From Nemertoderma westbladi (Eukaryota > Animalia > Xenacoelomorpha), in assembly GCA_032718475.1 (NCBI GenBank), contig JAUCBJ010000418.1:1-52912 (forward strand): a stretch of 52,912 bases of DNA. The letters run 5' to 3'. Under the pieces are notes generated by a model. That model saw only the letters and a program-made list of their open reading frames with translations, was not told the origin of the DNA and searched no databases. The position numbers were made by a program, and so were the translations under genes. Positions 14,920-52,912 of the stretch are shown in pieces. How positions within the stretch are numbered: the stretch's first letter is position 1; each line of letters opens with the position of its first letter.

Positions 14920-15029
14920 TAGTTATATCATCACGCCTCTGTAATACAGAAATAACGGCATTACCAGTTGAATTACACAACTTAGGGTTCTTTGTATGTA
15001 CTATAGTAAAAACCGGCAATTGTGAAAAT

Positions 15030-29073: not shown

Positions 29074-31465
29074 AGTTGAGTTGTGGTTGCTGCGCAGATC
29101 AAGGTAGATGAGTGGTGGTTGCTACGCATATCAAGGTAGATGAGAGGTGGTTGCTGCGCAGATCAAGGTAGATGAGTGGAGGTTGCTGCGCAGATCAAGG
29201 TAGATAGTTGTGGTTGCTGCGCAGATCAAGGTAGTTGAGTTGTGGTTGCTGCGCAGATCAAGGTAGTTGAGTTGTGGTTGCTGCGCAGATCAAGGTAGTT
29301 GAGTGGTGGTTGCTGCGCAGATCAAGGTAGATGAGTGGTGGTTGCTGCGCAGATCAAGGTAGATAGTTGTGGTTGCTGCGCAGATCAAGGTAGATGAGTT
29401 GTGGTTGCTGTGCAGATCAAGGTAGTTGAGTTGTGGTTGCTGCGCAGATCAAGGTAGATGAGTTGTGGTTGCTGCGCAGATCAAGGTAGATGAGAGGTGG
29501 TTGCTGCGCATATCAAGGTAGATGAGTTGTGGTTGCTGCGCAGATCAAGGTAGATAGTTGTGGTTGCTGCGCAGATCAAGGTAGATGAGTTGTGGTTGCT
29601 GCGCAGATCAAGGTAGTTGAGTTGCGGTTGCTGCGCAGATCAAGGTAGTTGAGTGGTGGTTGCTGCGCAGATCAAGGTAGATGAGTAGTGGTTGCTGCGC
29701 AGATCAAGGTAGATGAGTTGTGGTTGCTGCGCTGATCAAGGTAGATGAGTTGTGGTTGCTGCGCAGATCAAGGTATATGAGTGGTGGTTGCTGCGCAGAT
29801 CAAGGTAGATGAGTTGTGGTTGCTGCGCAGATCAAGGTAGATGAGTGGTGGTTGCTGCGCAGATCAAGGTAGATGAGTTGTGGTTGCTGCGCAGATCAAG
29901 GTAGATGAGTTGTGGTTGCTGCGCAGATCAAGGTAGTTGAGTGGTGGTTGCTGCGCAGATCAAGGTAGATGAGTTGTGGGTGCTGCGCAGATCAAGGTAG
30001 ATGAGTTGTGGTTGCTGCGCAGATCAAGGTAGATGAGTTGTGGTTGCTGCGCAGATCAAAGTAGATGAGTGGTGGTTGCTGCGCATATCAAGGTAGATGA
30101 GTAGTGGTTGCTGCGCTGATTAACGTAGGTGAGTGGTGGTTGCTGCGCATATCAAGGTAGATGAGTGGTGGTTGCTGCGCAGATTAACGTAGATGAGTGG
30201 TGGTTGCTGCGCAGATCAAGGTAGATAGTTGTGGTTGCTGCGCAGATCAAGGTAGATGAGTTGTGGTTGCTGCGCAGATCAAGGTAGATAGTTGTGGTTG
30301 CTGCGCAGATCAAGGTAGATGAGTTGTGGTTGCTGCGCAGATCAAGGTAGTTGAGTTGCGGTTGCTGCGCAGATCAAGGTAGTTGAGTGGTGGTTGCTGC
30401 GCAGATCAAGGTAGATGAGTAGTGGTTGCTGCGCAGATCAAGGTAGATGAGTTGTGGTTGCTGCGCTGATCAAGGTAGATGAGTTGTGGTTGCTGCGCAG
30501 ATCAAGGTATATGAGTGGTGGTTGCTGCGCAGATCAAGGTAGATGAGTTGTGGTTGCTGCGCAGATCAAGGTAGATGAGTGGTGGTTGCTGCGCAGATCA
30601 AGGTAGATGAGTTGTGGTTGCTGCGCAGATCAAGGTAGATGAGTTGTGGTTGCTGCGCAGATCAAGGTAGTTGAGTGGTGGTTGCTGCGCAGATCAAGGT
30701 AGATGAGTTGTGGGTGCTGCGCAGATCAAGGTAGATGAGTTGTGGTTGCTGCGCAGATCAAAGTAGATGAGTGGTGGTTGCTGCGCATATCAAGGTAGAT
30801 GAGTAGTGGTTGCTGCGCTGATTAACGTAGGTGAGTGGTGGTTGCTGCGCATATCAAGGTAGATGAGTGGTGGTTGCTGCGCAGATTAACGTAGATGAGT
30901 GGTGGTTGCTGCGCAGATCAAGGTAGATAGTTGTGGTTGCTGCGCAGATCAAGGTAGATGAGTTGTGGTTGCTGCGCAGATCAAGGTAGTTGAGTGGTGG
31001 TTGCTGCGCAGATCAAGGTAGATGAGTTGTGGTTGCTGCGCAGATCAAGGTAGATGAGTTGTGGTTGCTGCACAGATCAAGGTAGATGAGTTGTGGTTGC
31101 TGCGCAGATCAAGGTATATGAGTGGTGGTTGCTGTGCAGATCAAGGTAGATGAGTGGTGGTTGCTGCGCAGATCAAGGTAGATGAGTTGTGGTTGCTGCG
31201 CAGATCAAGGTAGATGAGTTGTGGTTGCTGTGCAGATCAAGGTAGATGAGTGGTGGCTGCTGCTCAGATCAAGGTAGATGAGTGGTGGTTGCTGTGCAGA
31301 TCAAGGTAGATGAGTGGTGGTTGCTGCGCATATCAAGGTAGATGAGTGGTGGTTGCTGCTCAGATCAAGGTAGATGAGTTGTGGTTGCTGCGCAGATCAA
31401 GATAGATGAGTGGTGGCTGCTGCTCAGATCAAGGTAGATGAGTGGTGGTTGCTGCGCAGATCAAG
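29074..31465. repeat. 32-bp satellite, block 3
   Basis: ~75 copies of the same unit, with an internal ~700-bp block duplication. Confidence 0.97.
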
Positions 31466-32330
31466 CGATTCTGAATTTGGCACTCTTTTCAATGAGAATA
31501 TCACAGACACTTTTGACCTAAACCCAACCACAGTCGAATCACATTCAGTCGTGCCACGGGCATGATATAGATTTAGAAATAAACTGGGAAATGTAATCAG
31601 AAAATCTTTTATAGATCACATTGTAGTATCAAATGACATGTTTGACAGCCTTTTATTCACCAAAGTCTTTAATACTGATGATGATAATGTATCTGACCAT
31701 GTCCCAGTATATTCAACCTTCTACACAAATCTTGCCCAAACGGCAGGGGACTTTAGAGGGACTGAGAGTAAATGGGGGAGACATACAAAACCTGTATTTT
31801 TGTTTGGGAGAGCAACTAAGAATGACATAGAAAATTATCAAGAAGAGGTATGTCGCTCCTTGAAAATATGCTGTGATTGGGCATCTGCAGAAACACAGAT
31901 CACGAGGGACAACATTGAGCTCCGAGCCAATGGATTGATCGACATTTTGTATCAAGCAGCTAGAAAGAAGAACATCCGACATGTATTTCCAAGACACCAT
32001 AAGGGACGCAGGAACCGGCAAAACACAAGACCCTTGGATCATAATTGGCACTTAATGAAAGGGAAGATAACAATGGGCAATAAGGATGATTGGAATCCTT
32101 CAATATCACTGCTAGAGAACAAAAGAATGACGCACCGAGTAGAGACTCATAAATACTGGCAACATATAAGGAATTTGGCTAACGATTGTCGTTCGAGTTA
32201 CAACAGATTCTGGTATAGATTGAAGTCAGAGAACAGTGTTGCTATGACTGATGTCCATAGGGACCAATTTTACTCAGACTATATGGGAAGATTCAGCATA
32301 AAGAGTTACCCATTATCAAGATTATCATGA
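31466..32330 (+). pseudogene. LINE C fragment: APE C-terminus and linker, paralogous to LINE B
   Basis: YRFRNKLGNVIRKSFIDHIV..SDHVPV..PVFLFGRATK..YWQHIRNLANDC aligns with LINE B YRFKNIFGQVTRSSLIDHVV..SDHTAV..PVYMFKRATK..YWEHIRNLTDSC. Truncated at both ends. Confidence 0.88.
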
Positions 32331-32946
32331 TAATTAGCTAATAGCATCAAATTTGTTAAAAAAATTTTAATTTTTATTGAACTTAATTTAATTTTTAAAT
32401 GATATTGAAATTAGCTAATGTATAACGGGTGAACCTGCATTAACTTACCTACAGGAGGAGTATGAGTCAGAATTGAAGCAAGAGAAAAAATCGTACGATG
32501 TAGTTAACCATTTCCCAACCATGGACTACATGGTAGTACATGCAGGGACTGTTCCATGGACTACATGGTGGTAGTCCATGGGTTTTATACTGACATTTAG
32601 GCATTCCTATGACGTTGGAACACAAACTGGTGTGTTTTATAGGCAACTGGAGCAGTTAATAAGTAAAAAAAATATAATTTTATATTACTGTAGTAGGCCT
32701 ACCAGACCAGGCTGCCCTAGCAACATAAATTTGAAAATGCTGAATTACGGCACTGCTACAGCAGAACAGCTCAATATAGTGCCTTACTGCATACTGTCTT
32801 AGCTGCGCACTTGATGTAAAGTGTCAAGTTTGTACCGAAACTAGCGGAATCCGCCAAGAAGCTGGCTGCAAGATCGATAATGAGGATGATGATGACGACA
32901 CCGACAATCAGCAGCATCAGACAATGACGGAATGAAGCATGCAGGG

Positions 32947-35251
32947 TGTTCGCGCTTTCAGACCTTTGGCAGTTTAACCCGCCAAATTAAGATGTCTTCT
33001 AGATATTAAATCGCTTTTTAGCCTATGACAAGTATTTGATTCACTACACTAGTCGAAACCAATCCGTGCGCGACCATTCACCCGCTGGATATTCCCGGGA
33101 GATTGGGTTCGACGGTTTAATTTTATTGCTATGTAAGCCTAATGTATTATTCGACTGACAGTATTATATAATCTCTGACAATATTATTCACCTTCGGTAA
33201 TATTAACAGTTCCTTTAGGACGTGGCGCTTTATCTATATAAACAGAGTTATGACTTAAACTACTCACAACGATATGGCTTAATTATAATTCACATATATG
33301 GCGCATTCTTTAGGAATTGCTTCTTTAACAGACTCACTCATACACAATGCTGCACAATACTGCACACTAATCTGCCAATCTTCACTGATTTTAGTCACAT
33401 ATAAAAGGAACACAGACTGACTCATGTAGGGTCTATCAAATAACATTAGATTCACTTCAAACCACTTTAACATAAGTCACAATAGTTATTGGTAACCTTT
33501 CTCTCTTACCTTCGGTCAGGGCCGGATTAAGGTTATCAGGGCTGTGGGCTGAGTAATAAAAAGGGCCATTTCCGACGGCTGAAAAATAACATGAAAACTA
33601 TACTGTATACAGTAATATGTAGGCCCTACTGTAATTTAGTACACCGGTTAGCAAGTTAATGTTACTGACTAAAACTAAACTAAAAAAAACTGAAACAAAA
33701 ATGAAACTAAAAATACTGACTTTAAGTCCTTTAATTGTCATTAATTGTCCGTCCAGCGGGGGTCAATATTATTGGATGGTCTCAATACAATCAGGGCTGC
33801 TTTAACCTTTTCAAGTCCTCTGGGCAGTAAATTTCAAATTTTGACCAAAATTTCTAACTTTCTTAATTCCGAATTTGCGACAGTTAGTTGACGGGAAACT
33901 GTAATTTTAAGTGGTACCGGTATTAAACGAACCTGTGAATCAACTTTCGAGTCATTTTAGTATCCATCCATGTTTATAGTGAACATAGCCGAAATTTTAC
34001 TGAAATATCGTCAAATGGCCCGTATTCTTAACCAAATTATAAACGTATTAGTCCCACCGTGGCATATTATCAGTTTAGTTTGGCAATTTGAACGAATTGA
34101 ATTTCTAACAAATTCTCCTAACAATAAACGATAACGTGAACGAACACATATTTAGGGCTTCCTTCCTTCCGTTTATGAGGATTTGCACAGCAGTTAAATT
34201 AGTGGAACTACTGTAAATCATTCCTCCTAGCGGCTGACAGAGGAAATATAGATGTCTGTCAGTGAGTAGAATTTCTAAACCTCTGATAGACTAATTATAC
34301 CGCTACACAAAATGTTTATCTAGACTATATAGCTCGTTATATATTGTAAACGCGAGCGAAGCGTGCGGAAATTTTTTATAAATCTGTTCATAACTTTGTG
34401 ATTTAAATGGAATTTAGGTACCGAGTTGGGCTTTTCTTTTAAAGATTACCTTCAGATTGTATTACTCAGCCACTCATCAGTTATTTTCGAATTTGGGGCC
34501 CCTTTCAAGACAGGGCCCCTAGGCTACAGTAGTAAGTTTTTGAGGGGCCGGTACAGTCGCTTGGGCCGTGGGCTTCAGCCCACACAGCCTCCCCCTTAAT
34601 CCAGGCCTGCCTTCGGTATATCAAGAATATTGGGTTTTCGGGGTTATTTCTCGTTATTCCAATATAATAATTCATCAACAAATATAATGAATAACCGACA
34701 ACAAATAGCAGTATACAGTATCGATTGAGCAGGTAATTTTAGCAGTTTCAGCAGTTATACGTCAGTTATTAAAAGCCGTGTGCCGTGTGTGTCAAATGCG
34801 TTAAAGGATATATGTCCTTATAATTAAACCTACTAGTGTTGAGCTAAAAAGCAGAAAGCATAAAACACTACAAAGCCGTTCTTTCGTGGCTTTTAAAAAC
34901 TCGTGACTACTGCTCTATACGAGGATACCAACTACCCTTATTCCACGAAGCTCCCGTTCAACACAGAGAAAGAGCAGTGAGATAGGAAAATTTCAGTTCA
35001 GTAGCTCTGTGATAGGTCAAAATCAAGGCTAACTCAAATTCTATTGGGAGATACAAAAACAAGGCTATGACGCAACCTGCCTAGGCTGGTTGGCCGATTA
35101 AACAGAGCCCAGATACCTGCGTACAGCAAATCAGCCAATAAGCTGGTAGCTTGCACTATTTTAGCTATAGATCCCTTTAGAGTATTCTAGCGACCGGGGT
35201 GGAACTGGCCAACAAGGCAAACGAATCAGTTATCCCACAAAAGCTTTTACA
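32947..35251 (-). repeat. 3' LTR of the BEL element (interrupted by a hAT insertion)
   Basis: Matches 45588-46791 after removing 33517-34609 plus one TSD (2305-1101=1204 bp). About six substitutions seen by eye. Confidence 0.95.
33517..34609. mobile_element. Non-autonomous hAT element, 1093 bp
   Basis: TIRs cagggccggattaagg / ccttaatccaggcctg (14/16) and 8-bp TSD ccttcggt. Empty site present in the other LTR. Confidence 0.93.
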
Positions 35252-38200
35252 CCGCTCCCAGAAAATGGGATTTAAGTCTATAAAATATACAAAATCACAG
35301 TTTCTAATATACATAAATACTCTAAACAGTTAGTCTTTCTTGCGCGGACGGCGTTTACGCAGTTTTTTAAAGCTAGCAAGAGTCATTTTCTCTTTGGGGG
35401 AAGCCACTTTACTAGGAGGGCCATAACTCCTGGGTGAAGGGTGCAATATGATTGCATTAAAAGGTTTGGGTTTACGGTCGGTGTCTCGTCCATTTCGATA
35501 TGCTTCTCCTCGAGCTGATTTTCCTCCGCTTGTCATGGGATACGTTCGTCCAAAACTCTCGCAGAGAATAGGGTTTTCTAAGCTTGATATCTTCTTTGAG
35601 ATTCGAGGTTTCCCAATCGAACTGAGATAAGGCCAATTCGTTTATCGATGGGACTTACTGTTATAACTTACGTTTATCTGAACAAACGCAGGTTTCTTTT
35701 TTGATCTTTATAGAATAGCGTTTAACTCGTTTCGTACAACGCTCTCCTTCACCTTGATGAAGGGTTGTATCGCATTAAACGGGACGACCATACGGTTGGA
35801 TAGTGATATTAGGTGTCTGCGTCATAATCCAGCTAGGTAAGATGGGCGGCTAGCTAGAAATCACTGTCGGAGTATTACCGATTAATTGTTAGGGTAGCAC
35901 TAGATCTTGAACAGTGAATACCGTCCGCGAGGATCAGCGATACCACCAGGATCGCAGGTCTGAGGTCCAACTAAGGAATGAGGAGGTTTGACCGAGTATT
36001 CCGGGACTCTGATCGTAGGTTTACTCTAGGATCGTTAGAGCCGAGTGAGCATAGGTGATACGTCAAACAAGTTTCGCTCGAAAATCCAGTAAATATAACG
36101 AACACAACTGTGTTTAACACAACGTTTCCGTGGATGTTTATGTCTTTCCGTTTATTGGCTGGGTCTAGGGCATTTACCGTAATAATACCAAAGACGCACG
36201 TCTGGTAGGGGAAACGCGGATGATATTTATTTGTTGTTACAATGCTTTTATCAAGAATTCCAAATATATGTTGGAGTTACCGCGTTTATTTGTTTCTTTA
36301 ATGTCTTTTCTTTCAAGCCGATTTCGAATAGAATTTTCGCATTCGAATTTCAGTTTATGGTTCCGACTCCGCTGGGCAGGATATATAGTCGACATAGTCC
36401 GTATTGTGTAAATTGATAGAATGACCAGTAGTTAAGAAGCCCATATACGTACCATTACGCTGCGTATATCGAGCAGTGAATTTCTTATAGTCCAACTCAC
36501 GTGTAAGCTGCTCTTGGGACATTGGCGGTTCGATATAACGACCATCATCCTTCGTAGTAGTTGGACTAGTATCACCGCGTATCAAGCTATCAACAAACGT
36601 TTGAAAGTAGAATATATCGTTCCCCGATACCAAGACCATCTTCTATCAACTCCGTCATATCTGCTATATATGAGTTCATCCATATTATAATGAGTTTATA
36701 TTTAGGCGAGCGGGCGTCGCTGCCTACCCCAATCAACCCCCGGACAGTACGAGATCCTCAGCGCCGATGTGTCGTCGCCGCTGTACTTTCGCAAACGACG
36801 TAGCCGCACAACGACAACGACAACCGGCACAAGTCACTCAACTGTCCGTCCCAAAGGCTTAGATGTACTTCAGGTTTTCCTTGGAGAGTTAGGTTACTTT
36901 TACGATTGCGACTAGCTACTGTAAACACACCTTAGTAGTAACATTCGCCTATAAACTCACAAATACCACACACACAACTTGTCACAAATTACACACACTC
37001 GGGTCACTTGTCCGTTAGTCAATGCCTTCCAGAATGTCACTGTATTATTATGTATCCTTGGATACTATCAGTGCACTATTTATTCCCTATGCTATTCAAT
37101 GGGACAAGCTTTCTATTGTTCTTTTAACTCAATTCTAATTCTAGCGTGGTTGTTGCTATGGTGACATTATGCAAAGCTAGCGGTAGAATTAGGGTAATTC
37201 CAATGCATACAGATCTGGGATGTTATTTAATAGTATTCTTTAATAGTCAATGTTCTGTTTTATACATGACTTTATGAATTTTATCGGCTATTGACTATGT
37301 TTGGGAGACTTTCGCACACTCATACGCATGATAAGATAAATCTCCGCTCCCTTGATCTATTAATTAATGGAATTTTGGGAACTTTATAAGTTGCGTAAAA
37401 ATGGCAATTTATTAAATTCATTAAAAGGCATGAATTTAAATTTATTCCCTGAAATTTTATTATTTGATAATTAAATGGACATATTTTGATTCTAGAACAT
37501 GTCTAGGGACACAAGATCCTTAATTCTATGACAATTGTCTTTTTTAAGAATATCGGTAAATGCTACGATATCTTAATTGACTAGAATTGTTGAAGGATCT
37601 GAATTTTACAGATTTTGACTTATTAGATTTGCAAATATTAAATAATTAATATTTGAGATGGGCACCGATTTATTCCAGAACTTGTCTGGGGACGTTAACC
37701 ACTGATTCTAGAATTTGTCTTTCAAGTATATCGGTGGGTGCCGCGATATCTTAATCGACTAGAATTACAGATGGTCAAAGGGTTTAACAGATTTATTTTG
37801 CGTTATACGCTACTGTTAAAGGGACATCACGCTACTATATGTATTATTTAATATACGGTATGAGAGCAATATCGCACGAAGCAATGTCAGTGTGAAGAGG
37901 CAAGTCGTTTCCAAGGTCTACCCAGAGCTTGGTTTAGCCGAGACACGAGGATCTGAACTTTGCATTCCTAATACTCTGCCTACCAATAATACTTAAATAT
38001 AGTAGTGGCTTTATTGTACTTTAATAAGTACGGACATTTCATCTTATTGTAGTTACGTATTTGTAATGTAATACGGACAGTAAGGAAGAAGGAAAATAAT
38101 TATTTCTTGCCGTCGCACTAAATATAATATATACGTAATTACGTACGCAATAAACACAAATATATTGCACTATTCTACTAAATAATCGCTAAATAAGATT

Positions 38201-38312
38201 CTACTAAATTAAATAAAACGATTATAATAAAATTACGTAGTAATACATACATAAATATAAAAATAATAAAATAATATAAAATAATAGAGTCACACACCCA
38301 CTCCATATGTTG

Positions 38313-41300
38313 TTACGTTATGGAGTCCCTAGATGTTTGAAGGATTAGGGAGGTGGTCGTGGGAAGAGAATCTTGCCTTCCACAGTTTCCGGAGAGTCCT
38401 CCATTCCCTTCCGGTAAACACAAACGACCAGCTGGGCGATTGAGTTGCTGCATCCCGAATACAATTCCAGGTTTCCTCTTCGTCCTGGAATAGTGACGAT
38501 AGAAACATCGCTCTAAGTACACGACGGCCTTACAAAGCCGATTCCAGGAGCTATAGTGGTCCGTCGCTCCCTGCAGGAGAGGTGAGAGTCCCTGCGAGAC
38601 GTCTGATGTTCCAGAGCTCCAATCGCTCTCTCTGATCTTCATGAAGGATCCACTCGCGGTGGGGAGGTCCAGATCCACGGCGTCGTCCCTGGCAATATGT
38701 AATACCGACAGATCTATCCCGGGTTCAAATAACTCCGCTCCACCCGTCCGGGTTTTAGGTTTAACTTTCTCCGCTCCCTTGGCTGGTCTAATCTCAGTCG
38801 GAGTAAGATGGGGAGGCCATTCATCCTCCTTACTCAGGAAGTCGGGTTCACCTAACCGGTCTGTAGTATCTGTCAGTTCTTGAGGAGTTGCTCCTCTGGA
38901 AGCGATGTCAGTTGGATTAAACTTCTTGGGGCAATATCTCCATTGATCTACATTGGAGCTAATATCGTCATTATCTGAGGAGTATGGTGTTCCCTCAGTT
39001 GGGTCGTCTCCCTCACTAGTATCATCTTCCCATTCACTCACCTGGCAGACGCGATCTTGAAGCAGTCTTTCTCTGAGCGTTCTTCGGGAAGGTCCAGTAA
39101 GGTACCAACCTACTCTAGTTCTTACCGCATAGGTCTGAAGTGGTTGCGGTTGAGCAGGTCGTTTCTCCAATGTCTCCAGCGCCTCATGCGCGTTTTGACC
39201 GATTAATATTTGTACTCCAGGATAATCGGTGTCGAATCTAGGGATGTTAAGTTGTTGGGCATGATCATCTTCGTCCCAATTATAAGGTTCCACTTGGGTG
39301 GTAGCGAAGTTCTTTATTGCCACCATTTTTACTGACCTTATACTGTATTCTCCTAGTTTATCCTGTGGAGTGGACAACTCACCTATATAATAGTCGGCAG
39401 CTACAGTAGAATTCCAAACCTGCATGATCCCTGACATGTTTAGCTTGGTTCGGAACTTGGGTTGTCCAGCAAAGATGACTTCGGCTAGTTCTTTATCGAT
39501 GAATGTTCCTGTGCTACCGGAGTCCAGGAGGGCGTTCACTATATAGCTCTGCTGAGGTCCGTGGACCCGTAACTGGACTACAGGAAATTCTCGGATTCCT
39601 ATATTGGAAGTTGGCGCTTTCCAAGATGGTTGTTGATCTGAAGTAGTTAGGGTGAGGTCGCTGTCTGTGTCTTTCTCATACATGAGTGCTCGATACACTG
39701 CGGTGGTGTTTATTAAGTAACAGGATTCGTTTTCGTCGGAGAACTCGTCCGTATAGAATCCTTCCATCTCAGATTGATCAGTGTCGTTCACATCACTGAA
39801 TTGGACATGTAGTTCGGACTCACTTACCTGACTCGGGCTGTTTCGTTCGAATTCCGTGTGCAACAAGATATGATGTTTTGCGCCGCACTTTGCACACCTT
39901 GCGTCGGAGTAACAGGTTCGCCGTTGGTGTCCTCGTCTGAGGCAATTATAACACAACCGCTTATCCCACATGACTTCACGTCTATCCTTTAGTGATTTCC
40001 TCAGGAATTTATCACACGCATTTAAACGGTGGGGCCCGTCGCACAGCACACATTTCGGCTTGATGTTACTTACTTTAACCTGTGCTATGTGGTGCACACT
40101 TGTTCTTTCCTCGGGCTTTCTCACCTGAATTCTTTTAGGAGACGTAGGAAGGGTTTTTTGTACCGGTTCCCTTCTGTCATTGGGTCGAGACTCGGATTTA
40201 CTTACCTGATCTTTAGGCATTTTATTGACATAATAAGATCTGTCAGTGTCTTTCCCGCTGTCCTCTCCTTGAGAAGTTTGGCTTTCACCGTCGTCGGTAT
40301 AACATACTGGTGTTACCCTTCTCCTAGAAACGGGTTTCTCACTTACCTTGTTTTCCAATGTCTTCTCTCTGGACTGCCTTAGGAGCTGTAATTTCACTTC
40401 TCTATCTAAGAATGACATGAGATCAGTCATGGTAGGGTCTCGTCGTTGTTGTTCCATCATATATAGTACTTTCTTATCCCAGCGTGTGCCTACCCCACCT
40501 TTCGGTAAAGTAGAAGCCACAGCTCCAATGACCATAGAACTTTGGTATTCATGAGACTTACCTAACCAATCTAATTGTCTACAGATCTCTTGAATCTCAT
40601 CGGAAAACTCTATTATCCCACTGCTGATGAACTTTCTGGGCGCTACTAATTTTGCATATAAATACTTAGCGATATTATTCCTATTACCATACCTGATGTT
40701 TAGTGTGTCCCAAACTTGTCTTAATCCGTCTGGATGTCCAATAAACTTTAACGCCATTGACTTGGGAGATCCTTCCAAGCACTCGATGAGGAATCTAAGT
40801 TTCTCTCCATTAGATAGTACAGAGTTCTGTATGTTATCTTTGTAATATTCATTAAAAGGTAACCATTTCATCTCATCTCCATTGAACTTGACGATCTCTC
40901 CCACCTTCACCGCTTGCCGGGCTTCGGTTCTAGCCATTTGACGCGTAAAACTTTCTTGGGCCATCGTGTTATTTAATATCGAGTTATCGGTATATAAATT
41001 TCTCGGATTATGATCAGTTCTATATGGAATATCATTATCAACAGGTCTATAATTACCCTTAATAGGGTTCACTATAGGAGTTTCTACTTCGCTAGTAGTA
41101 TAGATGCGTGTAGGCTCCACACCTTGCGCATGCGATACTTCAGACCTAACAGGTTGACACATTGTTACAGAGGGTGGTGGTATACCCCTTTGAGTATTTA
41201 CTAATTTATCGCGTTCTAGCGCGATACTTTGCTGCACTTCTTGCAACTCTAGCCTACTTTCCCTTACTGTGCCCTTGAATTGCTGGACAGTCTCCTGCAT

Positions 41301-41345
41301 CTGCCCGAGCAGGATATCCATCCCCCGCCGTTCTCGTCCACCCAT
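38313..41345 (-). CDS. BEL/Pao gag (DUF1759-like) + three Zn knuckles + aspartic protease + RNase H C-terminal remnant
   Basis: KFNGDEMKW..F..LSNGEKLRFLIECLEG; CVLCDGPHRLNAC, CYNCLRRGHQRRTC and CAKCGAKHHILLH; ALLDSGS, ILIGQN and RTRVGWYLTGP; QWRYCPKKFNPTDIASRG; YSSWNRL. Confidence 0.9.
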   Translation of the reverse strand: MGGRERRGMDILLGQMQETVQQFKGTVRESRLELQEVQQSIALERDKLVNTQRGIPPPSVTMCQPVRSEVSHAQGVEPTRIYTTSEVETPIVNPIKGNYRPVDNDIPYRTDHNPRNLYTDNSILNNTMAQESFTRQMARTEARQAVKVGEIVKFNGDEMKWLPFNEYYKDNIQNSVLSNGEKLRFLIECLEGSPKSMALKFIGHPDGLRQVWDTLNIRYGNRNNIAKYLYAKLVAPRKFISSGIIEFSDEIQEICRQLDWLGKSHEYQSSMVIGAVASTLPKGGVGTRWDKKVLYMMEQQRRDPTMTDLMSFLDREVKLQLLRQSREKTLENKVSEKPVSRRRVTPVCYTDDGESQTSQGEDSGKDTDRSYYVNKMPKDQVSKSESRPNDRREPVQKTLPTSPKRIQVRKPEERTSVHHIAQVKVSNIKPKCVLCDGPHRLNACDKFLRKSLKDRREVMWDKRLCYNCLRRGHQRRTCYSDARCAKCGAKHHILLHTEFERNSPSQVSESELHVQFSDVNDTDQSEMEGFYTDEFSDENESCYLINTTAVYRALMYEKDTDSDLTLTTSDQQPSWKAPTSNIGIREFPVVQLRVHGPQQSYIVNALLDSGSTGTFIDKELAEVIFAGQPKFRTKLNMSGIMQVWNSTVAADYYIGELSTPQDKLGEYSIRSVKMVAIKNFATTQVEPYNWDEDDHAQQLNIPRFDTDYPGVQILIGQNAHEALETLEKRPAQPQPLQTYAVRTRVGWYLTGPSRRTLRERLLQDRVCQVSEWEDDTSEGDDPTEGTPYSSDNDDISSNVDQWRYCPKKFNPTDIASRGATPQELTDTTDRLGEPDFLSKEDEWPPHLTPTEIRPAKGAEKVKPKTRTGGAELFEPGIDLSVLHIARDDAVDLDLPTASGSFMKIRESDWSSGTSDVSQGLSPLLQGATDHYSSWNRLCKAVVYLERCFYRHYSRTKRKPGIVFGMQQLNRPAGRLCLPEGNGGLSGNCGRQDSLPTTTSLILQTSRDSIT

Positions 41346-43345
41346 TCGACCGCCGAAGCGGGAGTCGCCAACGTTGTAGCGGGCGGACGAGGGACAACGG
41401 GCGACAAATTATGAATATTTCGCTCGGGGTCCAGGACCTGAACTGTCCCCTGGGCAGTTCTACGGGGCACAGGTAGCTTAGTGCTATGCAGAGGGAATTT
41501 AGAGGTAGTTTCAGGGAGCACAGGTGTGTCTATCACCGAAGGGGTGATTTCAAGAACAGGCCTAATTATTTCAGGCTCATCTACTATAGTAGGGAGTCTT
41601 TCTATTTTAATTATTTGGTCTGTGGGCTCTGTACTACCTAAGTTGGTGTTATTTAGTTGCCTTCTAACAGCTGGAGGCAAATCAGGCAATTTCTGACGGT
41701 GGAATGTTCTTTTACGTCTACTTAGACGAGATCTATTTCCTTTGCCTTCAGTATCGGTGGTATCACCTTCCTCAGATGATGTATATCCCTGTCGTTTGGG
41801 AGTAGATCGATTCATCATCTGCATATTACTAGCTGTTAACTGTTTATTTATGCAGTCTTGATTCTCCTGAATGTTTTCCAATTCTAATTGGGTGGTTTCT
41901 TCAGTCGCTCTCCGTTCGGCTTCTGCCACTGCCTCTGCTGTTGCCAGTGCCGCTTTTCTTTCCGCTTCGGCCTCTGCCACTGCCGATGCCGCTTTCCTTT
42001 CCGCTTCGGCCTCTGCCACTGCCACTGCCACTGCCGCTTTTCTTTCCGCTTCTGCCGCTGCCACTGCTGCTGCCACTGCCGCTTTTCTTTCAGCTTCTGC
42101 CGCTGCCACTGCTGCTGCCGCTTTTCTTTCCGCTTCTGCCTCTGCCACTGCTGCTGCCACTGCCGCTGTCTTTCTATCTTCTATACGTTTTTTCTTTACT
42201 TGTTCTTCTTGGTCTCTAGCGATGCGGAGTTGTTCATCGAATTTAGCTTGGTTCGCCGCTAACCTATCCACATCAATTGCATCCAACACACGCTGGGCTC
42301 CTTCACTATTAGGGCTAAGTCCCTCTAACCTTCTCCTCAACTCGTCATCACCTAAAAAACGTTGATAGTCTGACAGATAGATGTCAATGGCATCCCTCTT
42401 ATGCGGTTTCTCTGCCGTCGCTTCACTTTCCACTTGGGAAAAAGTAGCGTCTGTTGATTCTCCATGGGTTGATCGCTCCTCCAGCTGAGCTTTCCACTGA
42501 GCTGTTCCTTGAACCTGGAGATTCACCCTTTGAAACCAAGTCTTTACGGCGACTTGCAACGACGTGTCTTGTCTTCGTTTAGAAGCCTCCTCAAAGGCCG
42601 ATAATATTAGCCTGATTCGTAGAATTCTTTCTCTCACTTGATAAAGCAGTTGTCCCTGCTCTTGAGGTCCTTGTGGTTGTTGAAACAGTTGTCCTTTTAC
42701 TCGCTCCATAGAGCTGAAGAATCCCTGTGCGTATCCGGCTGCGGACCTCTTCCACACAGCGGGATCGATGGTTTCCTTGGCTACTCCCATCCGGTGTATG
42801 TCTTCCCAGGCAGCTTCTGATAAATCAAACGGGAGTCCGGGTCCGGGGAAGTTCCATTGCGACTCGACCATGGACTTCAGTTCTTCCCTTGTGTATCCAG
42901 CATAACTATCTCTAGTTGAACGCTGGCTTCTCGCCCAATCGATCTGGTGTTCTTCCACAGCGATCAATAACCTAGTGAGTACGGCTGCAGGAAGGATGAG
43001 AAGGGGATCTGAATAAGCCTCATCCGTCATCTTTGCTCCGCGTTCGGGTGTCAGCTCTACAGTATCCTCACTACTGGAGCTGTTGGGCCGTTGAGAAGTA
43101 GGTTCTTGTCTCGCGGGTTGTTGCTGTTCCGCTGCTTCTTGGTCCCGTTTGACCTGAGCTCGAGTGCCTATGATAGACCTACGATGTTGGACCAGCCTAG
43201 GTTCTTTTATTACTACTGGAGGGATGACTTTCCTCACAGTGGGAGGTGAACTGAACTTACGACTAGAAGGTTCTACGCCTCTATCTGAGTCGCAGATAGT
43301 TACATCTAATAAACTGTCTGACAGGTTCTGCTTAGTATCAGACAT
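41264..43345 (-). CDS. BEL element upstream ORF, probable N-terminal part of gag with an Ala/Glu-rich coiled-coil repeat
   Basis: 693-aa ORF overlapping the gag-pro ORF in the -1 frame at a G-run (~41322-41330). Contains AAVAEAEAERK repeats. Confidence 0.75.
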   Translation of the reverse strand: MSDTKQNLSDSLLDVTICDSDRGVEPSSRKFSSPPTVRKVIPPVVIKEPRLVQHRRSIIGTRAQVKRDQEAAEQQQPARQEPTSQRPNSSSSEDTVELTPERGAKMTDEAYSDPLLILPAAVLTRLLIAVEEHQIDWARSQRSTRDSYAGYTREELKSMVESQWNFPGPGLPFDLSEAAWEDIHRMGVAKETIDPAVWKRSAAGYAQGFFSSMERVKGQLFQQPQGPQEQGQLLYQVRERILRIRLILSAFEEASKRRQDTSLQVAVKTWFQRVNLQVQGTAQWKAQLEERSTHGESTDATFSQVESEATAEKPHKRDAIDIYLSDYQRFLGDDELRRRLEGLSPNSEGAQRVLDAIDVDRLAANQAKFDEQLRIARDQEEQVKKKRIEDRKTAAVAAAVAEAEAERKAAAAVAAAEAERKAAVAAAVAAAEAERKAAVAVAVAEAEAERKAASAVAEAEAERKAALATAEAVAEAERRATEETTQLELENIQENQDCINKQLTASNMQMMNRSTPKRQGYTSSEEGDTTDTEGKGNRSRLSRRKRTFHRQKLPDLPPAVRRQLNNTNLGSTEPTDQIIKIERLPTIVDEPEIIRPVLEITPSVIDTPVLPETTSKFPLHSTKLPVPRRTAQGTVQVLDPERNIHNLSPVVPRPPATTLATPASAVEWVDENGGGWISCSGRCRRLSSNSRAQ

Positions 43346-44649
43346 GTTTATGTGTACCGTTGAATGTCTACTGCTGTATTACAGTCTGAGCAAGTCTAGT
43401 AACTCAGTATTAACTGATAGCCTAGTAATTAATTACCGGTACTGCTACTCAGTGTAGCGTGATATATAATATATTAGAATACCGGTATGCTTATAGTATA
43501 TATAACTATTATTACAGACTAGGTTTATCACAGAATACCGGTATAATTTTAGCACAAATATATATAAATATATAATAGGCCTATCGGAATACCGGTATAC
43601 AGCTTACAGTTTGTAGTATATATAATTCTGGACTAGAATTAATTACAAGTACCGGTATAATTTCAGCCTAAGTTTATAGAAATAAAGATAATAGGCCTAT
43701 CGTAAATACCGGTATATCAATTATTTTAGAATAATTGAATTTCTGAACTTTAAGGGTTACTTGGTTACCTTACTTACTTTATCACCGTTATTTGAGCAGT
43801 AATCCAACTGATATTGAGACCTAATGGTTGTATGGCAGGCCTACTATTTATAAATCGTTTGAGTTGATTTATAATATATATATACCCGTTTAATGGGTTT
43901 TGTCAATGTTTGAAATAAATGTTATTATTTCTGGGGGGTAATCACTACACAAAGCGGTGCGCTTTTAGTGAAGTGTTACTTATAGGACACTAAAACAAAT
44001 AATTCTAATTTACCTAAGTTACTTAATACTACAAATTACGTACAATTCGGGTGAGATTACAATCTCTAAATAAACACAAAAATTTACAAAAACACAAAAT
44101 ACTAATTTTTAGGGTAATTTTACAAGAAGTCTACAAACCAGCCTAACAAAGGGTTAGAATTCTGGTTATTACAACGGACAGGGTACTACGGTATTTGAAA
44201 ATAATAAGTAGTAGTAAATACACTGCGTTGTCCAGATAGGAAAATACCACCGCCTGACGACCTATAGCCGTATCGCTATAGGTACTACGTTATGTATCAC
44301 GGAGTGTTCCTACCTAGAAGTTAATAGAGCTAATCGAACGTGCCTATCAACCACTTTACAACACAAATATAATGTCTACACTAATTACTTCGGAAAGTAC
44401 TGTACACTAAACCCTAAATTAGGTACGAGTACTTGTACAACAGATAATCAGTAGTTAAATATACTTGAACAGCTAAAAGAACCACGGCATCTGCTGGAGT
44501 GACCGATGCACAAAATCACCAGTCTTTACCTACGCCAAGCAGCCCGTGTAGTACCGGGGTTAATTTAACTATAGCGGTATGTATAACAAACACAATTACT
44601 GTAGGAACAAACTTGGGGAATGAATGTTGCGGATAATCGCATAAACTCT

Positions 44650-45240
44650 GAATAATAAATATTACGCTACGCGTACAAACTACTCAAACAAAATGCAGAC
44701 CGAACACTGACAGACTACTATCAAGCCTAAACAAACTACGGTATATGCAGACTCCGAAATAATTAGGTAGTATGCGTACTAACCCAGTAGTACGACTTAT
44801 TCTTTAGTTGGGGGTTTACCTTACAGCATTCGCTGCCCCTACTTCCTAACCGTTCTTTATCGGACAAGTGATCTACTCACGCTGCAATCCGTTCAGACCT
44901 AATAACAGCCAGACAACTATCCAGCCTACAAATTATCTAAATAATATTATACGCTACCCGTACAAACTTACACAAACAAAGTACAGACTCAACGATGGCA
45001 GACTACTCTCAAGCCTAAATAAACTACAGGACATGCAGACTCCGAAATAATTAGGTAGTATGCGCTCTAACCCAGTAGTACGACTTATTCTTTAATTGGG
45101 GGTTTACCTTACAGCATTCGCTGCCCCTACTTCCTAACCGTTCTTTATCGGACAGATGATCTACACACACTGCAATCCGTTCAGACTTAACAACAATCAG
45201 ACAACAGCTCAGCCTACAAATTGTCTGTACAATCTGATCA
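44650..45240. repeat. ~288-bp tandem duplication in the BEL 5' leader
   Basis: gcagactccgaaataattaggtagtatgcg...ttatcggaca at ~44747 and ~45035. Confidence 0.88.
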
Positions 45241-45573
45241 GGCTTACACGCCTTCTGTTCAATACTGGCCTTCAAACAAATAAAACTTGACAGAAATAAG
45301 TAAAATCTCAATAAAAACCAGGCGTCCCCGATTAATTATTAAGACCTACCGGCATATATAATCAAATCGAATAATACTGCTGTACTTATACGGGAAGTAC
45401 CGGTTAGGACAGTTAGGCCTACCGACCTACAGAAGTACCGTTTCTGGCAGTTGGACCTACGGACCTACGGCAGTACCGGTTCTGACAGTTGGGCCTACTG
45501 ACCTACTGAAGTACTGTTCAGGTTTACCGGTTGACTGGTACTTTCAACTTTATTGCTTACTGCAATAAAGAAG

Positions 45574-45587
45574 CATATATCCTTTAA
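45574..45587 (-). promoter_or_regulatory. Primer-binding-site position: non-tRNA, self-complementary to the LTR
   Basis: TTAAAGGATATATG directly follows the 5' LTR on the sense strand and is the exact reverse complement of sense-strand LTR sequence 46354-46341. Confidence 0.75.
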
Positions 45588-46791
45588 TGTTCGCGCTTTC
45601 AGACCTTTGGCAGTTTAACCCGCCAAATTAAGATGTCTTCTAGATATTAAATCGCTTTTTAGCCTATGACAAGTATTTGATTCACTACACTAGTCGAAAC
45701 CAATCTGTGCGCGATCATTCACCCGCTGGATATTCCCGGGAGATTGGGTTCGACGGTTTAATTTTATTGCTATGTAAGCCTAATGTATTATTCGACTGAC
45801 AGTATTATATAATCTCTGAAAATATTATTCACCTTCGGTAATATTAACAGTTCCTTTAGGACGTGGCGCTTTATCTATATAAACAGAGTTATGACTTAAA
45901 CTACTCACAACGATATGGCTTAATTATAATTCACATATATGGCGCATTCTTTAGGAATTGCTTCTTTAACAGACTCACTCATAGACAATGCTGCACAATA
46001 CTGCACACTAATCTGCCAATCTTCACTGATTTTAGTCACATATAAAAGGAACACAGACTGACTCATGTAGGGTCTATCAAATAACATTAGATTCACTTCA
46101 AACCACTTTAACATAAGTCACAATAGTTATTGGTAACCTTTCTCTCTTACCTTCGGTATATCAAGAATATTGGGTTTTCGGGGTTATTTCTCGTTATTCC
46201 AATATAATAATTCATCAACAAATATAATGAATAACCGACAACAAATAGCAGTATACAGTATCGATTGAGCAGGTAATTTTAGCAGTTTCAGCAGTTATAC
46301 GTCAGTTATTAAAAGCCGTGTGCCGTGTGTGTCAAATGCGTTAAAGGATATATGTCCTTATAATTAAACCTACTAGTGTTGAGCTAAAAAGCAGAAAGCA
46401 TAAAACACTACAAAGCCGTTCTTTCGTGGCTTTTAAAAACTCGTGACTACTGCTCTATACGAGGATACCAACTACCCTTATTCCACGAAGCTCCCGTTCA
46501 ACACAGAGAAAGAGCAGTGAGATAGGAAAATTTCAGTTCAGTAGCTCTGTGATAGGTCAAAATCAAGGCTAACTCAAATTCTATTGGGAGATACAAAAAC
46601 AAGGCTATGACGCAACCTGCCTAGGCTGGTTGGCCGATTAAACATAGCCCAGATACCTGCGTACAGCAAATCAGCCAATAAGCTGGTAGCTTGCACTATT
46701 TTAGCTATAGATCCCTTTAGAGTATTCTAGCGACCGGGGGGGAACTGGCCAACAAGGCAAACGAATCAGTTATCCCACAAAAGCTTTTACA
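45588..46791 (-). repeat. 5' LTR of the BEL element
   Basis: tgttcgcg...cttttaca, 1204 bp. Minus-strand AATAAA at ~45763-45768. Confidence 0.95.
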
Positions 46792-47502
46792 CAGGGATAA
46801 CGATAACAGCGAGGGATAATTATGATTCCGAAATTGCTGGTTCCGATTCCGATAGAGAATCTGACAGTGATACTGGTACTGGTTTTTTATATAATCTTAT
46901 ATAGATACCGGTACCTAATTATGAATTATTGGAGGAATGAGACCTGGGACTGGGGCGGCGTGATATTGCATATGCGGAAGAAGACTCTGATGACACTGTA
47001 GTCTGACGACTGAGGGTTGGTTGCAGTGATGTTATCGTTACAACTGGAAGCCTACAAACACACCCTGTTCATCACGAGAGAGTATAAACTGATCATTTTG
47101 ATAAAATTACATCTCGATGTCGGTATACAACAATGTTGCACTATTTTATTTACGATTATGTTGTCGGGTCTGCTGGGTAAATAACAAAACATTAAAGAAA
47201 ATCAGATTTGGATGTGTTTTATTTTCTACCGGTATTCTGCTATTTTTTACGATAAACCAAGATTGTGCCCTGGCGGTTTTGGTAATTACCAAACTCAAGC
47301 TGTGAATTGCTATGAATTAATTTGTTATTAGGCCCTAATTATAATATTAATGTTCACAATTCTATGTTGATTCTAAAAAACTAAAAACTGAGTTCATAGT
47401 ACCACCACAACCGAAGTTATACACAGCTAACTTACAATAATATTTTTTTCTAAAATGTTGGAGCACAGGTGGGCAGTAACCGCTGTAGCTCATATCGCGT
47501 TA

Positions 47503-48720
47503 GTTCTTATTTCTTATTTCCTCCAAAATATAAAATAAAAATAACGCACAATACCCTACAAAATTGATTTCTGGGTTGATTGGTGTGAGCTTCCGCTATA
47601 GCATAGCTAGTGTAGTTTTAGCTCACACCTGCATCTGGAGAGTTCTAGAATGTTTAAAGTAAATTTAATTATAGAGATAGGTGCGTGCGGTGCGGTTGAC
47701 TGCTGTCAGAATTTTATAAATATTTGTTTTTTCCTGCATGTAAAAAAATAAATTTTTGGTATACAAGACTGCATAGCAAACTGATGATAACCAATAGGGG
47801 AGAATGTATATGTAAAGAAAAAAAGTATGAAACTATATATATGACGCAAAATATGTAAAGGAAAATACATTTATATAACGCAAGTTGTTGATAACCAATT
47901 GGGGAGAATGTATATGAAAAAAATATATATATATAAAAAATATATGTATGCTATTGAAATTGAAATGGTTTAATCATATCTGCAGTAAGTGGTATTTTAA
48001 TTTTTTCTTAAATATCGCCAGGTTTCGACTGTCCCTAATAAGTTGTGATAATGAGTTCCACAAAAGTGGCCCTTGCATAGATAATGAAAGATGGTGAACA
48101 TCCAAACGAGCCGGAGGTAAATGATACAGGCCAGAGGAAGCAGAGCGAGTATTATATGAGTGAACCGAAGAGGCTTTATTTAGTAAAGAGTTTAGTAGGT
48201 TCCATAGGTAATCCGGTGCATGATTGGTCATGCATTTATATGTCAGCATTGCGATCTTGTATTCTATTTGACGGGGCACTGGGAGCCAATGAAGCCTTTT
48301 TAGAACTGGGCTATTGTGGTCCAGTTTCTTTACTCCCCCTACTAGTCGAGCCGCCGAATTTTGTACGTATTGTAATTTTGTTAAGTATTTTGAAGGCAAT
48401 CCATAATACAGCGCATTATTATAATCTAATTTGCTTGTAATAAATGTATGAACCAACGTTTCAAGATCATCTTTTGACAGGTACCGCTTTATCTTTGCTA
48501 ATTTACGCAGATGAAAGAGGGCACCATGTACAGTATTAGTATCTGTTTACTAGGTATTAAATGGGAGTCAATAATAAATCCAATATTGCGAGCTCTGTCA
48601 GTGAATCCCACCATGTCATCACACACTTTCATCTCGTTGTGCTCTATTTGGGTGCCGAATCGCGATTGTAACAGTAGGACCTTCGGTTTTATCGCTGTTT
48701 GGTCATCAATTACGCACATC
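47503..48720 (-). pseudogene. L2/CR1-group LINE 3' fragment with 3' UTR
   Basis: ARNIGFIIDSHL..., VHTFITSKLDYNNALYYGLP..LQYVQNSAARLV..LHWLPV..YKI..HSYNTR..GPLLWNSL..FKKKLK. 3' stem-loop at 47582-47629 and (aaataag) tail at ~47503-47520. Confidence 0.85.
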
Positions 48721-49681
48721 GATCAAGCAACGACCCATTTTTTCTTTGGCTGCAGTGCGATTTTCCGGTTTGAACGTGAGATAAATTTGTGTGTCATCAA
48801 TGTATAAATGGAACGATATACCGTATTTAGCAATGGGGTTCACGACTCAAATTCAAAACCAGATTAATTAGATGCAATAATATCACAGAAACACAATGAC
48901 GTTTACAGAATTCAATAAGATGCTAAAATAGCCGAGATATTGGTGTTTTCAGTTTAAAAATTACTCAAAATATGAAAACGATCTGTGATTGGTCGTGACG
49001 TCACTATACGCCTCTGAATCCCATTTATATCAACATCCAGATACCTAATACTATCTTTGTATAAATTGGGGCAGTTTGTTACTGCAGCGACTGCTACGTC
49101 AGTACTGTAGTACAGCAGTACAGTGCAGCAGTCACCGGTACAATTACTGCCGCACTGTATGTATACTAGGGTAGATCGAAAAAAAAAAATTTTGAAATTT
49201 AACTTTTCCCTATGTTAGAAATGTGTGAAATTATTGCCTAAAACCACAAAAAACATCACTATTCCAATTTTTGGCAATACATGACCCCCGCACAATTGGT
49301 TCAAACAAACATCATTTTTTACAAAATTATGTAAAATTAATTCATTTAGAAAGAAATTTTTTTTTAAATATGACTTTTCCCAGTGCTAGAAGTGTCTGAA
49401 ATGGCCTAAAACCACAAAAAAACACAACTTTTAAAAATTTTGACACTGCATGACCCCCGCACAATTAGTGCAATGTTTTACAAAACTATAAAAAATGAAA
49501 TAACTTGGACAGAAATTTATTTTTTAATATGAATTTTCCCATTGCTAGAAGTGTCTGAAATGGCATAAAACCGCAAAAAAAACACCACTTTCCAAATTTT
49601 TGACAATGCAAGACCCCCGCACAAATAGTGCAAACAAACATCATTTTTGCTACTAAACTATGTAATTATTAACTGTTAGTC

Positions 49682-49874
49682 GGGGGGGAGTAAACGCTCC
49701 GCCTCCACTTACACCTACACCCACTTGTAGGCAGGTTAGTTTAATAAGAGAATCAGCAGTTTGAGGATCAACAGTCAGCAGATGTATTGGCTTACCAGCA
49801 AGCCGGTACATATGTGTGTAAGTTTTTGTAGGCGTCTGGGGGCGAGTGTAAGTGTAGGCGTAACATTTACCCCC
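49682..49874. mobile_element. 193-bp MITE with 9-bp TSD (Mutator-like)
   Basis: gggggggagtaaacgctccgcctccacttacac / gtgtaagtgtaggcgtaacatttacccc. TSD ctgttagtc/ctgttagac. Absent from the opposite arm. Confidence 0.75.
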
Positions 49875-50321
49875 CTGTTAGACTGTGGGTAGCAGATCCT
49901 CTTTTACCAACCCAAATCCACAATGGCTGTATAAATTACAACTTTTTAACTTCCAAAGACTAGGCCAACTGTTGAACTACAAACGGAGCTGCACCTGCTA
50001 ACACTTCATGTAATGCCGGCAGCAGTACTTTCTGTTAACAACCGCTAAATAGTGAAGAAATATATCACTAATACTACTACTACTATAATCGGCCTGCTGC
50101 ATTGAAACTGCACATTGAGATGCTATGATGGCTTATCAAAAACATTTTGTCACCACCATGCAATCCACAATTGGCAAGCCCAAAGTAGCATGAACTAAGA
50201 ATGCTATGCCGGCTTATCACCAAAGTTGCACCGCCACAACCTCCTATCCCCCCACCCCCATGACTTTTGCGAAAGTCATCAAAAAAGGGTCTCAGCCCAT
50301 TTCTCATAGTCCCTCCCCTTG

Positions 50322-50412
50322 GACTGAAGAAATAATGAAGACTGAAGAACAAAGACTGAAAAATGAAGACTGAAGAACAAAGACTGAAGAACGAAGACTG
50401 AAGGACGAAGCC
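50322..50412. repeat. tgaagac-based short tandem repeat
   Basis: 7-bp units tgaagac/tgaagaa/caaagac. Confidence 0.8.
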
Positions 50413-50585
50413 TTCATGGTCCTTTTCGTTTCTAGGAGCCTTCGCCTAGGCCCCCTTCCTTGTTGGACCCTTCCTTCTTGGTCACCCAATGTAAACGGCA
50501 AGCATTTTATAAACATAGCATTATATGTTAACTTATGTGAATTTCGAAGCATCTACTTGACACCAACCAATGGGATATCCAATGC

Positions 50586-50873
50586 ATATTCTCTCCATGG
50601 GGCTGCCAAAATACAAGATTGTGCACAGGCTGGTCCTCACGGCGAAAGCAATGTCCTGCAAAGCGGAGGTGGCTTTGTTCTAGTGTTAAGCTTGGGGGAA
50701 CCAATGGGACACCTCCAATGTTATATAGTGTCTGGTTGGAGATGTGTGTATTGTACTGGACACAATGAACCCGGCGTAGCATTCGTGTAAAAGTGTCCTC
50801 CAGAGATTTAGTGACCTCAGCAGTTAGAGCCCAGCATGAACTCCCATACAGGAGTACTGAAACTAATGCTGCT
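50586..50873 (-). pseudogene. RTE-type LINE fragment, same family as 1-390
   Basis: HLRFAGHCFRREDQPVHNLVFWQPHG. Nucleotide-level similarity to 1-285. Confidence 0.78.
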
Positions 50874-52912
50874 CTAAATAATCGGACCTAAGGTTTCTGA
50901 TGAATTCTGTGTGAAGTGTGACTTCCAAATCCTGGAAAGCACATTCAATACTGCCCAGCCCATGCCTCTCCCTTCCCTTACGTTTAACATATCATTCTTA
51001 ATGCATGCTGCATTGGTGGATTGCATGGTGGTGGTGGTGACAAAATGTTTTTGATAAGACGGCATGTAGTATCTCAATGTGCAGTATCAATGCAGCAGGC
51101 CGATTATAGTAGTAGTAGTAATAGAGATGTACAGTATTTATTCACTATTGAGCGGTTGTTAACAGAAAGTTTACCGAATGAGAGCGGAGCACTATCACAT
51201 TTGTCCACTGAGACAAGATTCGAGAAGTGGAGCTGAACTTTCCACTCAAGCTATTTCCACTCCATAGTGTCATGAGTATTAATAACCTAACACTACAAAA
51301 TATATTTAATTCAATATAGGACATAGGTACAGGATGCAGTGTTGCAGGGGGTGGAAGTACAGTAGGTCTAAATATGATTAGAAAGTATATCTAGCAGTTC
51401 AGTCTAGTAGGTGGTTTAGTAGTGGTAGTCTAGTAGGTGGGTTAAGCTTTTATTAAGACTGTAAGAAGTATCTTGTCTTTAGTTCGAATAAAGTGTAATT
51501 ATAATTAAGACAGAAATTAAGTGGACGCAGAGTGGATATGGATATGGATAAGTATATAGTATGTAATGTGTACTGTTGCCGGCTCTCAAGTGTTAGCAGG
51601 TACAGCTCCGTTTGCAGTGTCCGTCAACATTCTGGTTGGCCTAGTCTAATTAAAAAGTTGTAATTTACTGTATAAAGGTATTTCCCGCCATGGTGGATTT
51701 GGGTTGGTAAATAAAGAACTGCTACCCACAGTATAACAGTTAATAATTATTACATAGTTTTGTAGGTTAGCAAAAATGATGTTTGTTTACACTATTTGTG
51801 CAGGGGTCTTGCATTGTCAAAAATTTGAAAAGTTGTGTTTTTTTGCGGTTATAAGCCATTTCGGACACTTCTAGAACTGGGAAAAGTCATATTAAAAAAA
51901 AAATTTCTGTCTAAATGAATTAATTTTACATAGTTTGGTAAAAAATGTTGTTTGTTTGCACTAATTGTGCGGGGGTCATGCATTGTCAAAAATTTGAAAA
52001 GTTGTGTTTTTTTATGGTTTTAGGCCATTTCAGACACTTCTAGCACTGGGAAAAGTCATATAAAAAAAAAATGTCTTTCTAAATGAATTAATTTTACATA
52101 GTTTTGTAAAAATTTTTGTTTGTTTGAACTAATTGTGTGGGGGTCATGCATTGTCAAAAATTTGGAATGTGATGTTTTTATGTGGTTTTAGGCAATTTCA
52201 CACATTTCTAACATAGGGAAAAGTTACATCTCCAAAAAAAAATTTTTTCGATCTACTCTACTATATACTTGCTTATTTTTACGGCAAACGGAGAGTAAAC
52301 GGACAACGGCAAGGTACAAGGAGGAGCGAACAGGGGTTCCCGGAACAACGGCAACGACAAGGACTGACAGAGGAGCGAATACGGCGAATGGGAGTACCTG
52401 GACTGCTGGAGCCGCAAGCCGGAACGGAACGCCCATGGCAATGTCCCATTTAAGCCTACTACGACGGTATGACGGCGACGTTCGACGGCAAAGGAAGAAA
52501 ATGATGTACGTATAGGCCTACATGCTACATAGATATTATGACCTGCGGGTTCAGGAAAGAAGAGAATGACCTTGTATATGCATGGGCCGTATCAGATGTG
52601 TACAGTCAAGGAGGAATCGACCAACGGTTAGTGTTAACGCTTATCATGGGGGTCTGAGGATGAGTGCGTGATTCAGCAAGATGCTAACAATGATACCGGA
52701 ACTAGTGGCGGCGTAGTCGCTTATGTATTGCTGCAAAGCGCTGTCAGAAACGACTGAACGATGTTTGTTTGCCTAACAGAGTTAGTTAAACTATCTTACT
52801 AGAAAGCATTCAGCGTAGAGACACGAGATTGCCATTCGGGCTCCGCGAGTTATCATATCCCATCCGCTTTTGTTGACTCGGACTGCCCACATTTGAGTAT
52901 CGATTCCACCGA

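Follow-up and report, generated by a model that had tools for sequence, protein, structure and literature searches.

A BEL/Pao element of Nemertoderma westbladi whose primer-binding site is complementary to its own LTR: a candidate for self-primed reverse transcription

BEL/Pao retrotransposons (Belpaoviridae, Semotivirus) are described by the ICTV as carrying a primer-binding site (PBS) of 18 nt for tRNA-Arg or tRNA-Gly, and their replication is poorly understood (PMC8742986). Tf1 and Tf2 of Schizosaccharomyces pombe and the related Tf1/sushi elements instead have, according to the sections covered of PMC7175516 and PMC6317226, a PBS complementary to RNA derived from their own LTR and use no tRNA. 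In Tf1, RNase H is known to cut the RNA behind a helix of 11 nt (PMC7175516). Self-priming has also been predicted from sequence in the plant elements Tcn1 (gypsy) and TAR (copia: Houba, Osr-1), so it appears to have arisen outside Tf1/sushi before; the sections covered of that source (PMC6317226) do not mention BEL/Pao or splice-built primers in connection with these plant elements. Self-priming or splice-built primers in BEL/Pao were not found in the literature covered, which included parts of PMC3601003, PMC5443660, PMC6238403 and PMC8220671, with most subscription journals and Repbase reports outside its scope; PBS or tRNA terms were absent from PMC554778 and PMC3118150.

The window analyzed here is the whole 52,912-nt stretch of N. 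westbladi contig JAUCBJ010000418.1 (assembly GCA_032718475.1). It contains one LTR element, on the minus strand at 46791-32947, with the following parts.

46792..46796, minus strand: target-site duplication of 5 bp, CCCTG, with its partner at 32942-32946
45588..46791, minus strand: 5' LTR, 1204 bp, with TGT..ACA ends
45763..45768, minus strand: the sole AATAAA within the LTR (motif scan)
41264..43378, minus strand: ORF1, 704 aa, with an alanine-rich repeat
38313..41408, minus strand: ORF2, 1031 aa, with a BEL Gag (DUF1759), zinc knuckles, a protease and a scrap of the RNase H end
35252..35260, minus strand: polypurine tract region preceding the 3' LTR
32947..35251, minus strand: 3' LTR, split by a 1093-bp insertion
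33517..34609, no strand assigned: the insertion, 1093 bp, with terminal inverted repeats and an 8-bp duplication

The element is young, with 6 differences between its LTRs over 1204 sites. The TG..CA LTR ends, the 5-bp target-site duplication, the DUF1759 Gag (Pfam, E 1.5e-11), the protease and the remnant of a Pao-type RNase H are those of a canonical BEL/Pao element. When ORF2 was compared with a profile of 20 intact BEL relatives, the Gag/protease region matched profile positions 182-714 with an E value of 3.5e-74, and ORF2 covered only these positions and 1266-1373 of the 1837; RT, most of RNase H and integrase were missing. The PR-RT-RH-IN order of BEL/Pao is thus not present, and the element is a non-autonomous deletion derivative that would presumably have to be mobilized in trans. 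Close protein relatives were not found, the best matches having ∼25-39% identity. ORF1, including its residues 100-400 taken separately, had no Atlas match, and the whole frame had none in Pfam; it overlaps the Gag frame by 145 nt in a different frame and may be linked to it by frameshifting or be translated separately. The leader (43379-45573) is unusually long at 2.2 kb and contains 288-bp and 38-bp repeats, and the 3' non-coding region (35261-38312) extends over ∼3 kb with five small ORFs lacking a Pfam match. The non-coding insertion in the 3' LTR, which we take to be hAT-like, sits at the candidate splice donor of that LTR.

Elsewhere in the window, a 32-bp satellite (85, 6, and 75 copies) at 21099-31465 is broken by two oppositely oriented non-LTR RT frames, one on the minus strand (24146-25618) and one on the plus strand (25816-28440) that includes an endonuclease; they possibly belong to non-LTR elements that target the satellite. 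Tandem arrays lie at 1801-17622 (19 bp ×247, 61 bp ×98 and ×31, 39 bp ×26, and 85 bp ×5) and account for the many ORFs at 1766-7376. The ORFs at 31566-32330 and 47974-48546 had no Pfam match and resemble LINE fragments. Inverted copies of a dispersed repeat occupy 1-291 and 50582-50870, and inverted copies of a 159-168-bp repeat occur at 49190-52245.

The element departs from canonical BEL/Pao at the site where the primer should bind. Two short features define this difference.

45574..45587, minus strand: PBS of 14 nt without TGG, abutting the LTR
46341..46354, minus strand: LTR segment exactly complementary to the PBS (predicted 3' end of a self-primer), with no substitution listed at ≥1% of depth in host contigs

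The PBS, TTAAAGGATATATG at 45587-45574, adjoins the LTR end directly, and the TGG expected at 45587 of a tRNA-complementary site is absent. The complement, LTR positions 438-451, occurs once per LTR, at 46354-46341 and 34814-34801, which confirms the original prediction of a PBS that pairs exactly with the element's own LTR. A chance probability of about 1e-4 to 1e-5 had been estimated for this match; the analytic value was 1.7e-5, and none of 10,000 Markov-shuffled LTRs reached even 13 nt. Among 10,296 anchor positions in the internal region, the 14-nt match was the single longest LTR complement. ARAGORN detected no tRNAs in the window, and the one Rfam match near the LTR was weak (snoR117, E 0.74, below its threshold). 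Folding at 45546-45567, immediately past the PBS in the downstream direction, is predicted to give a hairpin of 7 bp.

Host data consisted of contigs from four runs (X1, X3, X4, and X5), in which depth is not copy number. The contigs include LTR variants that are otherwise diverged and that have one block in common, with two motifs inside it.

46340..46390, minus strand: block of ∼45 nt common to the LTR variants, ending at the 3' end of the segment
ending at 46384, minus strand: acceptor-like T-tract plus AG within the block (motif scan), 30 nt upstream of the segment
46363-46357, minus strand: TATA-like TTATAAG within the block (motif scan)

Over 46270-46430, the contig depth in X1 fell from 202,202 at 46342-47 to 40,125 at 46336-41 and 1,315 at 46330-35, and differing loose ends were seen at 46340-46342 in all four runs, with further ones at 46379-46390. 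The drop in depth and the loose ends indicate that conservation stops at the predicted primer 3' end. Among the rows listed, no substitution inside the segment reached 1% of depth, and none of the loose ends listed inside the segment was of intron type; the segment is contiguous in the window, with no GT-AG intron inside the PBS complement. The PBS itself varied. One letter was missing at 45575 in 35,343 of 56,575 summed contig depth in X1, 37,791 of 58,965 in X3, and 16.6 of 16.6 in X4, and this form was not among the rows listed for X5. Since most of the depth in X1, X3, and X4 lacks that letter, the perfect helix commonly has 12 bp, compared to 14 bp in the window copy; the longer form could result from copying of the primer back into the PBS. 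A weaker helix that had been proposed to extend the pairing was indeed predicted as a duplex (-19.0 versus -15.3 kcal/mol), but its LTR letters lie outside the common block.

Relatives were collected with an alignment of the 20 best full-length protein matches, giving 73 metagenome loci and 21 genome-bin loci, most of the 94 without a readable LTR or PBS. Under the first rule, the point at which the two LTR copies diverge defined the PBS, the helix could be offset by 0-3 nt, and removal of one GT-AG intron of 50-600 nt was optional. The match to the element's own LTR was 11-15 nt in 7/7 elements (six loci plus the window), compared to 3-9 nt for 42 swapped pairs. In a second set under the same rule, L077 passed with 11 nt, and L074 (6 nt) and L088 (8 nt, partial LTR) failed; the former matches contiguously over 11 nt at offset 4, and the latter over 11 nt across a 696-nt intron. 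After these two cases the rule was widened once, for all elements, to offsets of 0-4, introns of 50-900 nt, and two more donor types. The own-LTR match was then 11-15 nt in all ten non-TGG elements with a PBS fixed by two LTRs, for which 0-7 of 3000 random anchors scored as high, whereas the four TGG elements (L084, L089, L090, and L092), whose sites fit the tRNA type, reached 4-5 nt and 182 swapped pairs did not exceed 9 nt. Covarying PBS-LTR complementarity in related BEL families, proposed beforehand as a check of the idea, was thus observed. Kept in distant relatives with different letters, the pairing makes priming by the element's own RNA likely.

Further details of this comparison were as follows. 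No tested element combined the self-pairing helix with a TGG site; the helix started 0-4 nt from the LTR end, and its letters differed in nearly every family. With the addition of elements whose PBS was located by inspection, there were 21 hand-checked helices of 10-15 nt. For L052, visual inspection put the LTR end at CA, 3 nt short of where the BLAST alignment ended. Four loci were left out of the fixed-PBS set: L034 and L045 (LTR end unsupported by a second copy), L012 (5' LTR end degraded, no full match), and L078 (an 8-nt acceptor-side match only, donor not found). No significant additional pairing was seen beyond or upstream of the helix (permutation p 0.075). A loose scan with an unfixed PBS gave at least 10 nt in 18/40 own pairs, including same-family duplicates and one probably spurious match (L056), compared to 121/1682 swapped pairs, and was judged too permissive to be used alone. 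The viral collection contained no BEL relatives (93 pattern matches, 0 confirmed), and its six exact matches to a 17-nt motif were taken as chance. The 21 genome-bin loci (L074-L094) represent animal BEL/Pao sequence in prokaryote bins; a Wolbachia chromosome record (NZ_OU909470.1) contains two elements (L084 and L092) that look complete, each with a TGG site and a pair of LTRs; they reflect host contamination or a real insertion. L026 is a tandem array of one element whose shared LTRs are 100% identical, possibly an assembly artefact.

In most relatives the pairing partner is split. The match was found only across a GT-AG intron junction in 7/10 of the fixed-PBS elements, in which the unspliced LTR gave 6-9 nt, and 18 of the 21 hand-checked helices span such a junction, which always lay 5-8 nt from the 3' end of the helix, a narrower range than the 3-12 nt permitted by the scan. 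The 5' LTR of L042 carries an acceptor and its 3' LTR lacks the intron; the two copies become identical precisely at the junction, and a donor is present at the corresponding place in its clade-mates L047 and L056. The precise absence of the intron from one LTR copy is DNA evidence that the intron is real. The segment is contiguous in the window element, in L074, and in the 3' LTR of L042. Because the match spans an intron junction in 7/10 elements and lies well downstream of TATA-like motifs, the primer is probably internal. The distance from the segment to the LTR end is 753 nt in the window versus 44-216 nt in the relatives, and the window helix ends in letters unlike those of the other elements.

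The position of the window element relative to this group was assessed from a tree of 28 rows and the 669 columns covered by the window protein, from which L074 and L090 were absent. Seventeen self-pairing and five TGG elements fell on opposite sides of one branch (support 98/94). The window protein, with a branch length of 2.1, was placed between them, and a second tree agreed. Nesting the window inside the self-pairing crown gave a p-AU of 0.026, and grouping it with the BEL-type TGG rows gave 0.059 and was not rejected, for a protein with a long branch and for groups named after the tree had been seen. The window element may be a member that has evolved rapidly, a sister lineage, or a case of independent origin. 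Since it lies outside the split-primer group in the tree, the relatives provide an analogy for the window copy rather than proof.

Two candidate introns in the window LTR came from the motif scan and were also considered in RNA folding.

46384..46656, minus strand: candidate LTR intron upstream of the segment, with a weak donor at 46656
45816..46150, minus strand: candidate LTR intron downstream of the segment, with a donor at 46150 and an acceptor set by eye that failed the pyrimidine filter

Folding predicted the helix in two situations only: when the RNA began at or below 46383, and when the candidate intron 46656-46384 had been taken out. Of 12 unspliced starts, 9 gave p ≤0.03, although long-range folding is unreliable and these runs count as weak evidence; in them, the excision of the downstream candidate intron missed its acceptor by 1-2 nt. 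The helix probability was 0.98 for RNA starting at 46354. The latter value fits a transcript that begins at ∼46354 as in Tf1, in which the segment would supply the first 12-14 nt and the upstream part of the block, ∼36 nt and so of core-promoter size, would be the promoter; the possible separation of the window lineage from the split-primer group also leaves room for such a start. We nevertheless consider it unlikely. The lack of a canonical TATA box at -25 to -30 of 46354, noted in the original prediction, was reproduced by the motif scan, an acceptor-like site lies at 46384, and the relatives have an internal partner, usually intron-split with an upstream exon and located 52-240 nt past a TATA-like motif in 5/9 cases. 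The proposal that the primer would be the first nucleotides of an RNA starting at ∼46354-46360 was accordingly not borne out, whereas the broader proposal of tRNA-independent self-priming gained from the covariation and from the end of conservation at the segment 3' end.

The main risk to an internal primer comes from TTATAAG, 9 nt before the segment, because its use as a TATA box would leave the segment out of the 5' RNA. Transcription would then start at ∼46333, the RNA would contain the segment in its 3' U3 and nowhere else, and the pairing would serve circularization or dimerization, or priming from a second RNA. TTATAAG is the sole such motif upstream of the segment, and an extra letter in some host contigs converts it to TATAAA. 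Sequence between a TATA box and the start site is usually free to vary, yet this interval has no listed substitution here, and conservation stops at the helix end rather than at the start site; moreover, a cut in the 3' U3 would presumably remove the repeat needed for strand transfer. We regard this arrangement as improbable. Slightly more doubtful still is a pairing that is real but regulatory, acting in packaging or translation, with priming by a host RNA such as a tRNA half. tRNA priming is the mode given by the ICTV for the family (PMC8742986), and half-tRNA primers exist in Copia (PMC6317226, sections covered), but the pairing begins 0-4 nt from the LTR end, where a primer must sit, its letters differ in nearly every family, and it is absent from 4/4 TGG elements. 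A chance match or assembly artefact, for which only the AT-rich composition of the 14-mer could be cited, is effectively refuted by the p value of 1.7e-5, the occurrence of the match in each of the LTRs and in the contigs from all four runs, and the covariation in relatives.

Taken together, the data argue strongly for a primer encoded by the element in some form. The reading that we favor, with some reserve, is that the segment acts as an internal minus-strand primer that replaces the tRNA and is cut at its 3' end. The segment would not begin at nucleotide 1 of the RNA but lie further inside its 5' untranslated part, RNase H provided in trans by an autonomous BEL element would cut after the helix as in Tf1, and RT would extend from the cut end of the LTR strand into U5. 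In most relatives the segment would be assembled by splicing of an LTR intron, and in the window it would be ready-made. Inheritance of the intron would require an unspliced 3' copy, so either the 5' copy alone would be spliced or a short spliced LTR transcript would prime in trans. By a narrower balance of the evidence, we suggest that tRNA priming was replaced in a large animal BEL/Pao branch by an internal self-encoded primer that the spliceosome assembles from two LTR exons, with the window family as an intron-less form or a second independent origin.

As judged from these comparisons, the feature is one that would work like Tf1 self-priming without belonging to the Tf1/sushi group. The helix lengths are similar (11 nt in Tf1, 10-15 nt here), but Tf1 is a member of the Ty3/gypsy superfamily, and the window proteins are of BEL type and lack a chromovirus Pol. 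The Tf1 primer is the first 11 nt of its RNA, whereas the BEL primer appears to be internal and, in most relatives, intron-split; cleavage has been demonstrated for Tf1 and is predicted for the BEL elements described here. If the favored reading is correct, self-priming would extend to a third LTR superfamily, and a splice-built primer would couple the onset of reverse transcription to RNA processing by the host, with the attendant puzzle of an LTR intron that is both spliced and inherited. Such elements might escape control by tRNA fragments, and their priming mode may explain why PBS-based annotation can miss them.
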